A stretch of 64,000 nt of DNA from an uncultured bacterium (GCA_963707655.1 OY970172.1:928001-992000), one strand, 5' to 3'; positions 38,140 through 60,415 are shown, numbered from the stretch's first letter. A program made the numbers and translations. The notes: generated by a model not told the origin, from the letters alone.

Positions 38140-38320
38140 GGCTTGTTCGCCGGATCTTTATGCGAAGTATGGGAGGAGAGCAGGACTTTGAAATTTTTAT
38201 AGCCCTACTACGCCAAGGCTTCGAAGGGCATACTTCGCTTAGTGCTATCAATTTCAATGTATTATTAAGTGCTTCCGTTAAAGAAGTTGGCCTGCCGTAT
38301 GAAGCTTTAGCGAAATATGG
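38140..38320. repeat. Cluster of REP-like structured repeats (3-4 copies, both orientations)
   Basis: Copies at 38140-38172 (+, degenerate), 38203-38230 (-), partial 38229-38241 (-), 38289-38320 (+); core GAAGCYTTRGCGWA within a variable stem. Confidence 0.7.
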
Positions 38321-38505
38321 GTTATGAGCCTTGAATAACACTCGTTTTTTGTGGGCAATGCAGCCAGTTAGTTTTGATCACTTCGACTGTTAGCAATCTC
38401 AATGGCATAGTTTTTATACCTATTAAAAGTCAAAAAAATGCTATTTTCTACAAGGAATTTTTTAATGTTAATACTATTTTCTCTTTCTTTTCAAAGGAGC
38501 TTTTG

Positions 38506-40158
38506 ATGAGCGCTCAAGATCCAAGAGTAGTTCAAGCAAAATTGCATGACCCCAAAGATGAACCAAATACTAGGGATACTGAGTTGACTAGTCATCAGCG
38601 TAATTTTGATGATGCGCCTCCTGTTCATGATGATGTGCGCGAACTAGAGCAAGCACCTGCACAAAAAGCAGAACCGGCTGGAGCTCCCCAGCAAGAACGC
38701 AGAGCGCGTCGCCAGCCTTATCCGTCAAACAGATCAAACCCTCGATACCGCGATCGTCATGCGCAACACAATAGCCCGCCGCGTGACTCCGCTGAACCGT
38801 ACGATGCAGATGCAGCAAGAGAAATGCGTGAGCAACGTGCCGACCAGCAAGATCATCAAAAGCCGATTGAACCACGCAAGATAGCGTTGGAAACTCTCTC
38901 TTTGACCGAGCTTAATGTCTATGCGCGCCGTTTAGGCATCGTAGGCGCTGTATTGATGAACAAAGATGAACTGATTAAAAAAATTAAATTTGTTGAAGCG
39001 CATCCCGATATTGAAATTGAAGTTGAGGGGGTATTGGAAAAATTACCGGATGGCTTTGGCTTCTTGCGTTCATCAAAGTTTGATTATGTTTCCGGTCCGG
39101 ATGATGTGTATGTGTCACCGTCACAAATTAGACGTTTCAATTTAAGAACGGGTGATACGGTTACTGGCGTTATTCGTAAGCCAAAAGATGGAGAAAAATA
39201 TTTTGCTCTATTGAAAATCACGCGAGTAAATTTCTCCGAAGCATCATTAACAGAAGATCGTCTTAACTTTGATCGCCTCTCTCCACAACATCCACTGAAG
39301 AAATTTAATCTTGAGTATGATCCAGCCGTAATTTCTACGCGCGTTATGGATCTTTTTACCCCAATTGGTAAAGGTCAACGTGGTCTTATCGTTGCACAGC
39401 CAAAAGTGGGTAAAACAGTGTTACTCAAAGAGACGGCACAGGCCATTATAGCCAATCATCCTGAAGTATTCTTAATCGTTTTACTCATCGATGAGCGCCC
39501 AGAAGAAGTTGCCGACATGCGTCGCACAGTCAAAGGCACAACGGCTGAGGTCATTAGCTCTACCTTTGACGAATCAGCTGAGCGCCACGTGCAAGTTGCA
39601 GAAGTTGTTCTTGAAAAGGCAAAGCGTCTGGTTGAAGCGGGCAAAGATGTGGTAATCATTCTTGATTCTCTCACTCGTCTGGCTCGTGCATATAACACCA
39701 TTGCGCCTGCATCGGGTAAAATACTTACCGGTGGTATTGACGCAAATGCATTGCAGCGACCAAAACGTTTCTTTGGTGCGGCAAGAAATACAGAAGAAGG
39801 TGGATCGCTTACGATTCTTGCTTCCGCGTTGATTGATACTGGTTCTCGTATGGATGAAGTAATCTATGAAGAGTTTAAAGGTACCGGTAACATGGAAATG
39901 CACATGACCCGCAAACTGGCAAACCGTCGTGTTTATCCGGCGTTTGATCTCCTTGTCTCGGGAACTCGCCGCGATGAATTATTGCAAACCGAAGAAGACC
40001 TGAACAAAGTATGGGTAATGCAAAAATTCCTTGCTACCATGAATGCAATTGAGGGCATGGAATTCCTTATCGATAAGATGAAGAAACACAAAACAAATGT
40101 TGAATTTCTTGAATCGATCAATAAGAAAACTACCGCAACAAATGGTAACGGCAATTAG
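38506..40158 (+). CDS. rho: Transcription termination factor Rho with long N-terminal low-complexity extension
   Basis: [56 protein letters not shown] before ATG 38506. Confidence 0.98.
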
Positions 40159-40181
40159 TTAATACCAGTCAATTTTATTAT

Positions 40182-40213
40182 TAAGGCCATATCATTCTTT
40201 TGATATGGCCTTA
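40182..40213. terminator. Hairpin terminator after rho
   Basis: TAAGGCCATATCA-TTCTTT-TGATATGGCCTTA perfect 13-bp stem. Confidence 0.85.
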
Positions 40214-40319
40214 GTTTTTCTTGTACTACTTATTTGCGATATAACACCAGCCGCCATAGCAAAAGACTAAATGTGCGCCCTGGGAGCAGCTGGAATATCT
40301 TTTTTGAACGTTATATTGT

Positions 40320-57883: not shown

Positions 57884-57902
57884 GCGGGAAATTCCTTATA
57901 TT

Positions 57903-58946
57903 TTATTCCATTAACGCTTCTTTAAAGAAGTCATAATTTTCAAGTACACGTCCAATGCCATTAACTACACAAAAAAGAGGATCTTCAGCGATTTGCACCG
58001 GCAACCCCGTCTCTTTAGAAATCAAGCGATCAAGTCCTTTAAGCATTGATCCGCCTCCTGCCATCATGATTCCTTTATCAACCAAGTCTGATGATAGTTC
58101 CGGTGGTGTATTTTCAAGAGCAACGCGCACCACATCAATAATAGATGCTACGGTTTCCAGCAATGCCTCGTTTACTTCACCGCTGGTGATGGTGATCGTT
58201 TTAGGAACGCCTGAAACTAAATCGCGCCCTTTTACTTCCATGTTTTGTTTTTCAAGGTTTTGATCCAGAAGCGCTGATCCGATTTCAATTTTGATCACTT
58301 CTGCTGTACGCTCGCCAATCAATAAATTGTATTTGCGTTTCACATATTGCACAATTGCGCGATCCATCTCATCGCCGCCAACGCGCACCGATCGACAAAA
58401 CACTACTGATTTGAGCGATATCACCGCAACTTCTGTAGTCCCGCCGCCGATGTCGACAATCATGCTGCCTGCAGGCTCCTGCACTGGTAATCCAGCGCCG
58501 ATTGCAGCTGCCATTGGCTCAATAATAGTGCGTACAAAACGGGCACCCGCTTGTTTGGCTGAATCAGTTACCGCGCGCTTTTCAACTTGGGTAATTCCAG
58601 AAGGAACACCTATAATCATGCGAGGGCGAATTAAGGTATTGCGATCGTTGTGAACAACCTTAATAAAATAACGAAGCATGCTTTCAGTCAATTCAAAGTT
58701 GGCAATCACCCCGTCGCGCATTGGCCTACAGGCAATAATGCTTTCCGGTGTTTTCCCCAACATCTCTTTGGCTGCTTTACCGGCTGCAAGCACAATATTG
58801 CTATTAGCGCGAACTGCCACTACGGATGGTTCATTAAGAACGATCCCTTTACCACGCACGTAGACAACGGTGTTTGCCGTGCCTAAATCAATTGCCATAT
58901 CGTTAGACAAAAGACCCTTAAATAATTTTGCCGGAAAAAACTTCAT
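57903..58946 (-). CDS. mreB: Rod shape-determining protein MreB
   Basis: IDLGTANT, EPSVVA, RPMRDGVIA, EPMAAAIGAG, DIGGGTTEVA. Confidence 0.98.
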   Translation of the reverse strand: MKFFPAKLFKGLLSNDMAIDLGTANTVVYVRGKGIVLNEPSVVAVRANSNIVLAAGKAAKEMLGKTPESIIACRPMRDGVIANFELTESMLRYFIKVVHNDRNTLIRPRMIIGVPSGITQVEKRAVTDSAKQAGARFVRTIIEPMAAAIGAGLPVQEPAGSMIVDIGGGTTEVAVISLKSVVFCRSVRVGGDEMDRAIVQYVKRKYNLLIGERTAEVIKIEIGSALLDQNLEKQNMEVKGRDLVSGVPKTITITSGEVNEALLETVASIIDVVRVALENTPPELSSDLVDKGIMMAGGGSMLKGLDRLISKETGLPVQIAEDPLFCVVNGIGRVLENYDFFKEALME

Positions 58947-58987
58947 CCTTTTCCTTGTTGCTATGATTGGTTAAGACTTTTTTTATT

Positions 58988-60292
58988 TCAGAAAGCAAAC
59001 TCTACTGCTAGAGAAATTTTGTGCGTTTTTGGAACATTATGTGCTGCGATAAATGCAACCGGCAGATCCCAATTCAATTCCACAATAGGTGCAAAGCGAT
59101 GGCACGAATTCACTTTACCAAAATCATAAAAAACATTAAATGAAAAATCTTCCATGACCCATGATGATTTAAAATCACCGGTTAACATATCATTTTTTGG
59201 CGCATTCGCTAAAGCACACGGTTCGCTCGAATTGTCTTGGCCATGAGCCATAATGGTATATTGAATTCCCATGCCTAATCCCTCGCGCATGTTTTCTATG
59301 CGAAAGTAGGGGTAAAATGCACCGAAAAGACCCGGATCAATGTATGCTGTGCCGGTGGTAATACCAAAAAGTGGCGACCACACTTTATTCACGGTTTCCG
59401 TGTTTGTTTGCATAGTATTGTTTTCCACAGTTTGCACTTGAATGGTCTCTGGCGTTATTAAGGGAAAACGCACGAATCGGCGCCGTGCAAAGCGTTTGCT
59501 CAAACGTGCGAGATAACCTACTTTCCAGTCTTCTCTAATTTCAAATTCACCATCGGCGCTTACATATGCGCCATAAAAACCGTTACCGCCAAAAGGAATC
59601 GAGGCGGGATTGTTAACTTCACGCACTTGCCCTGCCGGTAACAATGCGCCCAAGCGCACTCCCAAGTTGATTGTTCTCATTTTATAAGCATAACAACGGG
59701 TCCAGTCAAAACGCATATATACGTCCAAGTCTCCCATGCCCATGTTGGAAGAATGACCGCAAGAGAGCTGGGCCAGTGAGAACATTTCACGGCGCGCTTC
59801 ATCAAGGGCTACTGCTTGTTCAGCTGTAATGGCGCCGCTTGAGTTATTTGCATTGAGAGCATAGAAGATGCTTGAATTGATGCGCATCATCGCCCAATCA
59901 AAACCAATGCCCCAATGTTTTGTAATGCCAAATAATCCGCGAAAGCCAAAACCCTCAACTTGAAATTTGCCATTTAAATCCCATGGTATTTTGCTCACGT
60001 CTTGAAAATCAAGCGGCAAAGGATTGGGAAGACCGGCTGCGACGAAACCCTGTGCCATTACTGCCTGATCAAAAGCGCCAAATATGAGCGGGATTCCCCC
60101 TTCATCGCCATCGGTCAAAAATGCTTCTTTAGCGGTAGCAAAAAAAAGATCGCAGGAACAGTGGTACGGATATTCTGCGATATACATGTAGGGCTTTTGA
60201 ATTAATGGCATGAACTGATTATCAAACACCATGCTTGATATGCTCTGCATTAAGAATAAGTTAATTAAAAAAATTACTATGCGTTTTATCAT
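58988..60292 (-). CDS. Putative outer-membrane beta-barrel protein
   Basis: Signal peptide, amphipathic strands, GMGDL and LPAG motifs, terminal LAVEFAF (C-terminal Phe). Confidence 0.75.
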   Translation of the reverse strand: MIKRIVIFLINLFLMQSISSMVFDNQFMPLIQKPYMYIAEYPYHCSCDLFFATAKEAFLTDGDEGGIPLIFGAFDQAVMAQGFVAAGLPNPLPLDFQDVSKIPWDLNGKFQVEGFGFRGLFGITKHWGIGFDWAMMRINSSIFYALNANNSSGAITAEQAVALDEARREMFSLAQLSCGHSSNMGMGDLDVYMRFDWTRCYAYKMRTINLGVRLGALLPAGQVREVNNPASIPFGGNGFYGAYVSADGEFEIREDWKVGYLARLSKRFARRRFVRFPLITPETIQVQTVENNTMQTNTETVNKVWSPLFGITTGTAYIDPGLFGAFYPYFRIENMREGLGMGIQYTIMAHGQDNSSEPCALANAPKNDMLTGDFKSSWVMEDFSFNVFYDFGKVNSCHRFAPIVELNWDLPVAFIAAHNVPKTHKISLAVEFAF

Positions 60293-60382
60293 TATTAACC
60301 CGTTTTTTTGCTCGTAGATTTTCGCTTCTTGTTGTCAATTTCAATTTATACTTTTAAGTGCGGGCCTTTCCGCAGAAGAAAT

Positions 60383-60415
60383 GGCTCTGCCAGCCGGAGC
60401 CTTGGCGTAGGCTGG
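60383..60415 (-). repeat. REP-like element starting at the tRNA-Ser CCA
   Basis: CCAGC-CTACGCCAAGGCTCCG-GCTGG-CAGAGCC; shares the 13-mer CTACGCCAAGGCT with 38208-38220. Confidence 0.72.

Follow-up and report, generated by a model that had tools for sequence, protein, structure and literature searches.

A short hairpin whose stems differ in sequence and still pair recurs in a 64,000-nucleotide stretch of DNA from an uncultured bacterium (GCA_963707655.1, OY970172.1:928001-992000, hereafter the window), part of the genome of a small intracellular Dependentiae bacterium that consists of a single contig of 1,091,075 bases with 41% G+C. Its copies probably belong, as the hairpin module, to a small selfish DNA cassette lying directly behind transfer RNA (tRNA) and transfer-messenger RNA (tmRNA) genes. 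By analogy the element is best read as a tRNA-end-anchored variant of the selfish cassettes that combine a GIY-YIG nuclease with hairpins (Ssn-like), present here mostly as relics without the gene. This reading starts from what was directly observed: the architecture of the module, its anchoring at the CCA end of the RNA genes, the covariation of its stem, the co-occurrence and adjacency of the nuclease gene in several phyla, leaders that are almost the same behind several tRNAs of one genome, and the gaining, losing and exchanging of the unit among close relatives.

Read on its own strand, the module follows the plan CCA-NNC / T-W-C / G-C inner hairpin G-C / T-N-C / G-NN-TGG / C / N2-4 / GCCA, in which a core made of a 3x3 internal loop and an inner hairpin of variable length (4 to about 90 nt) is closed by an extra outer stem onto the CCA of the tRNA. 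A C follows the stem in 39 of the 43 aligned copies and a CCA lies within 10 nt after it in 34 of the 43; the 'GGCNYG-like flank' noted in the original prediction, which was made from the window alone, is the reverse complement of this conserved tail, C-N2-4-GCCA. As a full copy of the 5' arm the second CCA is partial, 41 of 102 positions being identical against 30.9 in shuffled sequences, a value that 9 of 2000 shuffles reach. ARAGORN finds 38 tRNA genes in the genome, every one ending in CCA, and the motif NNC-T[ATG][CT]G[CT] stands directly after the CCA at 21 of 39 tRNA/tmRNA ends. The corresponding 11-base pattern, starting at CCA, has 98 matches genome-wide against 74-94 in simulations; since it barely exceeds the genome background, the signal is its concentration at RNA ends. 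A covariance model built from the 43 aligned copies (26 of which come from other phyla and 17 from this genome) recovers, at E up to 1, 23 sites genome-wide, 17 of them seeds, and 16 of the 23 begin exactly at a tRNA/tmRNA CCA; copies with a long inner hairpin escape the model and were spotted by eye. Both the proposed dispersed, REP-like hairpin family anchored at tRNA-like 3' ends and the further copies that a covariance-model scan was expected to reveal are thus borne out. A loose two-anchor regular-expression scan, with 37 matches against 20-41 in simulated genomes, was replaced by the covariance model. Orientation relative to replication, tallied by hand from GC skew for 29 copies, gave about 18 on the leading strand and 11 not, a count confounded by tRNA orientation, and no clear replication-strand bias is seen among these 29.

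The window holds three full copies and a shortened one, whose positions and description in the original prediction are correct in sequence, as is the junction with tRNA-Ser(cga). Its features are as follows.
38162-38181, minus strand: fragment GCTCTCCTCC CATACTTCGC, a tRNA-Ser-like gene end and the first 10 module bases (pattern match at genome position 966170, compared with the end of tRNA-Ser(tga))
38203-38243, plus strand: reverse-oriented module, module B of the minus-strand leader, CCCTAC/TAC/GC-CAAG-GC/TTC/GAAGGG (sequence and covariance model)
38229-38279, minus strand: spacer of the solo leader, in which a small CTTC..GAAG hairpin, AT-rich sequence and GCGAAGTATG occur (from its layout)
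38280-38320, minus strand: forward module of a solo leader without a tRNA gene, CCATAT/TTC/GC-TAAA-GC/TTC/ATACGG/C/AGG/CCAA (sequence and covariance model)
42723-43091, plus strand: tmRNA gene, ending in CCA (Rfam RF00023, 142.1 bits)
43089-43109, plus strand: shortened module from the tmRNA CCA, CCATAC TTCG TATGG C GAGCC (sequence)
60322-60374, limits approximate, minus strand: decayed remainder of a cassette leader, with a small hairpin and AT-rich spacer (alignment of seven trailers)
60375-60415, minus strand: forward module behind tRNA-Ser(cga), CCAGCC/TAC/GC-CAAG-GC/TCC/GGCTGG/C/AGA/GCCA (sequence and covariance model)
60413-60505, minus strand: tRNA-Ser(cga) gene (ARAGORN; Rfam RF00005)

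At tRNA-Ser(cga) the terminal CCA of the gene (60415-60413) supplies, as had been proposed, the first three bases of the 5' arm of a 6-bp stem, and the copy at 60390-60415 reads CCAGCC TACGC CAAG GCTCC GGCTGG on the minus strand. This module, itself a seed sequence, is the genome's top match to the covariance model (52.1 bits, E 9.4e-9). The leader that follows it aligns with the leaders behind other tRNAs up to AATTGA..CAAGA and diverges thereafter, with 57-62% identity to full leaders over 128 nt. Downstream of tRNA-Ser(cga) lies a gene (60180-60295, minus strand) with a signal-peptide-like start followed by MVFDN(Q/R)F.P, which is syntenic with this tRNA in much of the family. The intergenic region 38028-38374 contains two copies, one per strand, both seed sequences. 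That at 38295-38320 (minus strand, 44.4 bits) forms five of its six outer pairs, the third being A.C, and that at 38203-38228 (plus strand) scores 35.8 bits. To judge from its layout, the spacer at 38229-38279 has the same arrangement as the leaders behind tRNA genes; its GCGAAGTATG is an inverted repeat of CATACTTCGC, which comes after it at 38162-38171 on the minus strand. By their arrangement the copies at 38.2-38.3 kb belong to a single solo leader of the minus strand, as its forward and its reverse module, and after it comes the fragment with the tRNA-Ser-like end. The tmRNA gene was found by Rfam and is absent from the ARAGORN output. Its copy, which also starts at the CCA as predicted, matches the covariance model weakly (18.4 bits, E 0.55); compared with the tRNA-Ser(tga) copy, 12 core bases are gone between two TTCG direct repeats, and the copy is, as far as its sequence tells, a relic with an internal deletion. 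The 14-base degenerate core of the original prediction is matched exactly at 3 sites of the window and at 9 genome-wide, against a chance expectation that we put roughly at 0.1 for a uniform 2.2-Mb search space. Allowing up to two mismatches, the window has 8 matches against 5.1 +/- 2.25, which 11 of 100 shuffles reach, and the excess is not significant.

The window contains, as had been stated, no nuclease or transposase gene for the element. Two PF01541 matches occur in the genome, one in a long frame at 798 kb, which from its size alone we take to be UvrC, and the other in the sole small GIY-YIG gene of the genome at 315.76 kb (C1:315763-316086; L001:1501-1824). The protein of the small gene matches PF01541 at 64.1 bits over residues 1-72, and a search of solved structures gives SLX1 as its best match (E 8.7e-5), with UPF0213 at E 0.045. 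The gene is preceded, in this order, by a 16-base tRNA-like 3' fragment ending in CCA, a forward module about 180 nt upstream, a spacer and a reverse module, and its last codons extend into half a module; the usual ending of the family, KRLL-stop, is replaced in this copy. The proximity to GIY-YIG genes that the original prediction mentioned is borne out, the genome's only small GIY-YIG gene lying behind a module. A tblastn search for GIY-YIG relics elsewhere in the genome returned weak fragments (E 0.16 at 753.4 kb, 0.39 at 816.5 kb), which were not used. In 30 family loci the 1.5 kb around tRNA-Ser(cga) contain no GIY-YIG gene.

The same neighbourhood is found across at least six phyla. Relatives of the gene, scanned in one genome per species, amount to 79 loci with 45-76% identity in Dependentiae/Babeliales, Alphaproteobacteria including Bradyrhizobium, Verrucomicrobiota, Planctomycetota, Acidobacteriota, Elusimicrobiota, Bdellovibrio-like bacteria and others; 26 of the 79 had contributed seeds to the covariance model. 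A co-oriented tRNA or tmRNA lies upstream of the gene in 64 of the 77 loci with enough upstream DNA, at 89-435 nt from RNA end to gene (median 136), and these 64 upstream RNAs comprise 13 tRNA kinds and 8 tmRNAs. The 26 of the 64 that follow tRNA-Ala, mostly the tRNA-Ala(ggc) of Bradyrhizobium and its kin, are for that reason not independent. The trailer starts CCA-NNC-TNYGY in 56 of the 64, with a matching 3' arm in 55 of those 56. Within 500 nt upstream of the gene the covariance model finds a forward module in 72 of the 79 loci, and a reverse module stands between forward module and gene in 45, both modules being present in 41; a module downstream of the gene is seen in only 6. In the 80-residue family Y5, Y17 and E63 are invariant, at positions like the Y6, Y17 and E64 reported as mutated in SsnA. 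Two Bradyrhizobium genomes have 2 and 5 small GIY-YIG frames, and the supplement of Chenal 2025 lists an ssnA homolog for Bradyrhizobium. Among 151 Dependentiae genomes the module is found in 109 and the gene in 105, 94 having both, 11 the gene only and 31 neither, and after many of the top module matches a gene match follows on that strand, 100-300 nt further on. These co-occurrence counts ignore the kinship of the genomes, so that a Fisher test overstates the link between element and gene, relatives not being independent. At one locus (L005:1779-1870) an insert of about 90 bases separates tRNA-Arg(tct) from its hairpin module and is followed by an 11-base near-repeat of the tRNA-Arg(tct) 3' end (CAGGCGCACCA versus TAGGCGCACCA); its sequence suggests another, distinct element that shares this target.

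That the gene consistently beside the units encodes a GIY-YIG nuclease bears on whether they are ordinary repetitive extragenic palindromic (REP) sequences or bacterial interspersed mosaic elements (BIMEs), moved by a REP-associated tyrosine transposase (RAYT, of the IS200/IS605 type) or another transposase and linked to tRNA ends only as a by-product of insertion preference. The short palindromes, the mosaics of forward and reverse units and the GTAG in some cores (GCGTAG) would agree with this. However, GTAG is not conserved, the core reading TWCGC, and the suggested check for nearby RAYT genes came to nothing, as no Y1 transposase (PF01797) is matched at E up to 0.01 in this genome, which is 88.6% complete by marker genes. 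We regard such an origin as extremely improbable.

The stems of the module vary and still pair, as had been predicted. In the alignment of 43 copies 96.8% of 408 stem cells are paired, and 53 cells carry double changes compared with 13.3 +/- 3.6 in shuffles, none of 500 of which reaches 53. Sliding the partner columns lowers pairing to 17-50% (maximum 49.5%), and stem pair 4-29 occurs as four pair types, GC, CG, UA and AU. The 131 model matches from the 79 other loci, an alignment that leans towards structure because it was fitted to the model, give 95.5% of 1117 cells paired and 202 double changes against 79.8 +/- 6.4 in shuffles. G.U pairs make up 1 of 408 cells in the 43 copies and 4 of 1117 in the 131 matches. 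An RNA helix under selection would generally keep a far larger share of such pairs, and the near-perfect Watson-Crick symmetry would fit complementarity that is kept at the DNA level or made by copying. Few G.U pairs, a strand-specific core in both orientations within one unit and, by analogy, the preference of Ssn for single-stranded DNA suggest that the module acts as DNA. At the tRNA-Ser(cga) loci of two family members (L113 and L124) the gene, by the ARAGORN end call, seems to end in CCT and not CCA, and there the 3' arm carries the matching A (CCTAAC..GTTAGG and CCTTAC..GTAAGG), so that pairing is kept despite the change in the encoded CCA.

Such an outer stem, pairing with the CCA and even with a CCT through a matching A, is also what a functional trailer RNA would show. 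A co-transcribed hairpin could pair with the CCA to serve 3' processing, protection from exonucleases, termination or separation of messages, with the nuclease gene riding along, and in the original prediction a cis-acting RNA sequestering the CCA had been envisaged. In keeping with this, every tRNA-linked copy is sense-oriented and starts exactly at the CCA, and the minimum-energy RNA fold of the tRNA-Ser(cga) trailer includes the hairpin; read-through from the tRNA promoter into the nuclease gene is moreover plausible, given that the gene follows in the same direction at a median of 136 nt. Nevertheless we judge an RNA function unlikely, and sequestration of the CCA is not upheld. The near absence of G.U pairs speaks against it, as do copies away from tRNAs and reverse-oriented copies within the same unit, and no T-run follows the hairpin. 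Folding energies are unremarkable, with z-scores of -1.07 (tRNA-Ser(cga) trailer, folded as RNA) and +0.79 (solo leader, folded as DNA); on this measure by itself the element does not stand out. Furthermore, 42 of the 151 Dependentiae genomes, single-contig genomes among them, have no module match, and orthologous tRNAs in many relatives have plain trailers, which makes the element dispensable. No Rfam family matches it: the window at gathering scores gave only the tmRNA and tRNA, 20 copies from the genome gave no match at E up to 1, and the sole match for 38000-38420 is a chance snoRNA outside the element. An intrinsic terminator was considered and rejected, the 6-bp stem with its 3x3 internal loop (z -1.07) being followed by C-N2-4-GCCA instead of a T-run.

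The selfish cassette reading draws further on turnover between loci and genomes. In the host genome the leaders behind tRNA-Ser(gga), tRNA-Ser(gct), tRNA-Phe and tRNA-Lys(ctt) are 74-91% identical over 128 nt, which indicates that copies of one unit were placed behind several tRNAs. The 30 family loci of tRNA-Ser(cga), syntenic with the downstream MVFDN gene, carry a module with a GCC, GTC, ACC or TGC stem or, in most cases, a short plain trailer. One genome of the same genus has 18 covariance-model matches, 10 of them at tRNA/tmRNA CCA ends, with modules at tRNA-Cys, tRNA-Leu(tag), tRNA-Thr(tgt) and tRNA-Met(cat), all of which are bare in the host genome; it carries other stems, often TGC, at shared tRNAs and a full module at the tmRNA CCA, and at its tRNA-Leu(tag) a second unit starts at the GCCA that ends the first. 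Four DNA sequencing runs, with fragmentary contigs, gave no joint across the element. A separate series of seven copies of AAGTTGCTGAAATAGA-CCGATAGGG(C/T)(A/G)CACCA lies on the plus strand of the host genome (C1:315546, 318552, 1006359, 1009324, 1012177, 1014674 and 1017433), and a hairpin module follows all but that at 318552. Their spacing of about 2.5-3 kb suggests that they sit behind members of a tandem paralogous gene family. Their final 10 bases are identical to those at the 3' end of tRNA-Arg(tct) (996006-996082), itself module-free, and the copies may represent the distal end of an island that integrated at this tRNA and was later amplified along with the gene family.

A rival reading is a domesticated host system, in which the hairpins would be sites where the nuclease cleaves single-stranded DNA that enters the cell or becomes exposed, and their presence at tRNA genes would modulate recombination or foreign integration there, as proposed for Neisseria. 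The precedent is that SsnA and NTS repeats lower transformation in N. meningitidis (PMC11893778), and tRNA 3' ends are classic integration sites of mobile islands. Against it, the distribution is patchy even within genera, the gene is down to a single altered copy in the host genome, and the nuclease is 45-76% identical across distant phyla, a similarity high enough to suggest horizontal spread. Domestication we therefore hold to be quite unlikely.

A full cassette comprises, in the direction of the tRNA, the CCA and forward module, a short spacer, a reverse module and the gene for an 80-residue single-domain GIY-YIG nuclease, the 5' arm of the forward module being the CCA and three variable bases. 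The host genome retains one nuclease gene and about 30 modules, and these would be gene-less relics or satellite copies. Taking the characterised Ssn nucleases as an analogy (Chenal 2025), we infer the following steps of cutting and copying. Either the module or the tRNA-like 3' end would be recognised by the nuclease on one DNA strand in its single-stranded state and nicked at the CCA or immediately ahead of it; an occupied copy would serve as template for the repair, and the module, at times with the gene, would thereby land behind a new tRNA. Since the unit begins with the final three bases of the tRNA, the tRNA would not be disrupted, and the second GCCA at the module end would re-create a CCA end and permit tandem addition of a further unit.

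Several observations weigh against this scheme. Joining DNA is beyond a GIY-YIG nuclease on its own, and host repair must be assumed for the spread. The genome's small GIY-YIG protein has 107 residues compared with 80 in its relatives, with an abnormal C-terminus, and 15 of the 151 Dependentiae genomes have a module and no detected gene. All tRNA-linked copies are in sense orientation and paired with the CCA, which an RNA function predicts equally. The published SRM pattern has one match in the genome, against 1-3 in five simulated genomes, and none of the 79 loci has a match within 500 nt of the gene. Finally, no near-identical pair of genomes with an empty and a filled site was found.

A broader proposal, which we put forward tentatively as possible rather than probable, is that a family of miniature GIY-YIG cassettes, spread over several phyla, homes to the 3' ends of tRNA-like genes of every kind, guided by structure and not by sequence, with a hairpin that borrows the CCA for its recognition stem and a second CCA that re-creates the target. 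If so, units could stack and leave REP-like arrays, and orphan CGTC-type REPs and Ssn nucleases would gain a natural role in single-strand, structure-guided homing into tRNA trailers. CGTC-type palindromic repeats have been without a known mobilising enzyme since 2013, and the cassette offers one conceivable explanation for the origin of such repeats. One widespread subfamily of 80-residue GIY-YIG genes is found with a hairpin at one sharply defined place, the CCA end of tRNA/tmRNA genes, and this placement holds in bacteria as distant as Dependentiae and Bradyrhizobium. It defines a concrete substrate, a single strand with a tRNA 3' end and hairpin, and culturable carriers exist, for example Bradyrhizobium. 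In genome annotation such trailers could be mistaken for terminators or small RNAs.

The combination of a small GIY-YIG nuclease with dispersed hairpins is already known. On its anchoring at tRNA/tmRNA CCA ends we found no paper, nor any that links GIY-YIG/Ssn nucleases or such repeats to tRNA ends, in a search with subscription journals largely uncovered. The original prediction allowed for a match to a described family, and the outcome is divided: the element resembles the Ssn/SRM hairpins and the CGTC REPs, while Rfam holds no match and the published SRM pattern fails. Ssn proteins are described as small single-domain GIY-YIG nucleases that bind oriented NTS/SRM hairpins exclusively in single-stranded DNA and cleave a few bases 5' of the hairpin, being inactive on RNA or double-stranded DNA; the repeats flank the Ssn gene and are also dispersed in the genome (PMC11893778). 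They were presented in 2025 as the first site-specific single-strand DNA cutters, their role outside Neisseria being left open (PMC11893778). The likeness to the reported Ssn/SRM system lies in a small single-domain GIY-YIG protein (94 residues in N. meningitidis, 80 here), a gene next to oriented hairpin repeats with many dispersed gene-less copies, an oriented 5' tag before the palindrome (CCGTCAT in the NTS28 oligonucleotide, CCA-NNC-TW here, or CCGTC-TT where the unit is reversed), a C conserved behind the palindrome, and carriers enriched among symbionts and intracellular bacteria. By contrast, the hairpin differs from the SRM motif described, as the failure of the published pattern to match indicates, and relative to that description only the present element has an outer stem closing on the CCA of a tRNA together with a 3x3 internal loop; the word tRNA has no occurrence in the main text of Chenal 2025 (PMC11893778).

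The CGTC-tagged REPs, which include the Rickettsia RPEs, are reported as short palindromes with the CGTC tag at one end, for which no dedicated transposase was found, with Bradyrhizobium among their carriers (PMC3733652, Di Nocera 2013). PMC3733652 reports no link to tRNA ends or GIY-YIG genes, its four mentions of tRNA concerning protein genes and GIY having none. Reverse units here begin (C)CGTC-TTCGC, and CCGTC or CCCGTC in relatives, which may correspond to that tag; forward units, unlike the reported ones, begin CCA-NNC (GCC, GTC, TAC, ACC, CTC and others), with three variable bases that pair with the 3' arm. REP/BIME elements and their RAYT in Enterobacteria and Pseudomonas form mosaics of forward and reverse units with many gene-less copies and a proposed single-strand recognition of the hairpin. 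The present element shares with them the mosaics of forward and reverse palindromic units and the few gene-bearing copies, and departs from them in having no GTAG tag and no Y1 transposase, and in its GIY-YIG nuclease gene and CCA-end anchoring. The RtT/tyrT trailer repeats of E. coli (RF00391) are repeated structured units behind a tRNA gene that echo the tRNA 3' end, whereas the element described here has no Rfam match and a different core sequence, and occurs behind many tRNAs in many phyla. Islands borne by integrases use tRNA/tmRNA 3' ends as attachment sites. The target is the same here, and duplicated tRNA 3' fragments lie beside the element (a 16-base fragment of the CCGATAGGGCACACCA type, which has seven copies, and the tRNA end at L005); the present unit differs from such islands in being about 0.1-0.5 kb long without a recombinase, and in beginning at the CCA rather than inside the tRNA.

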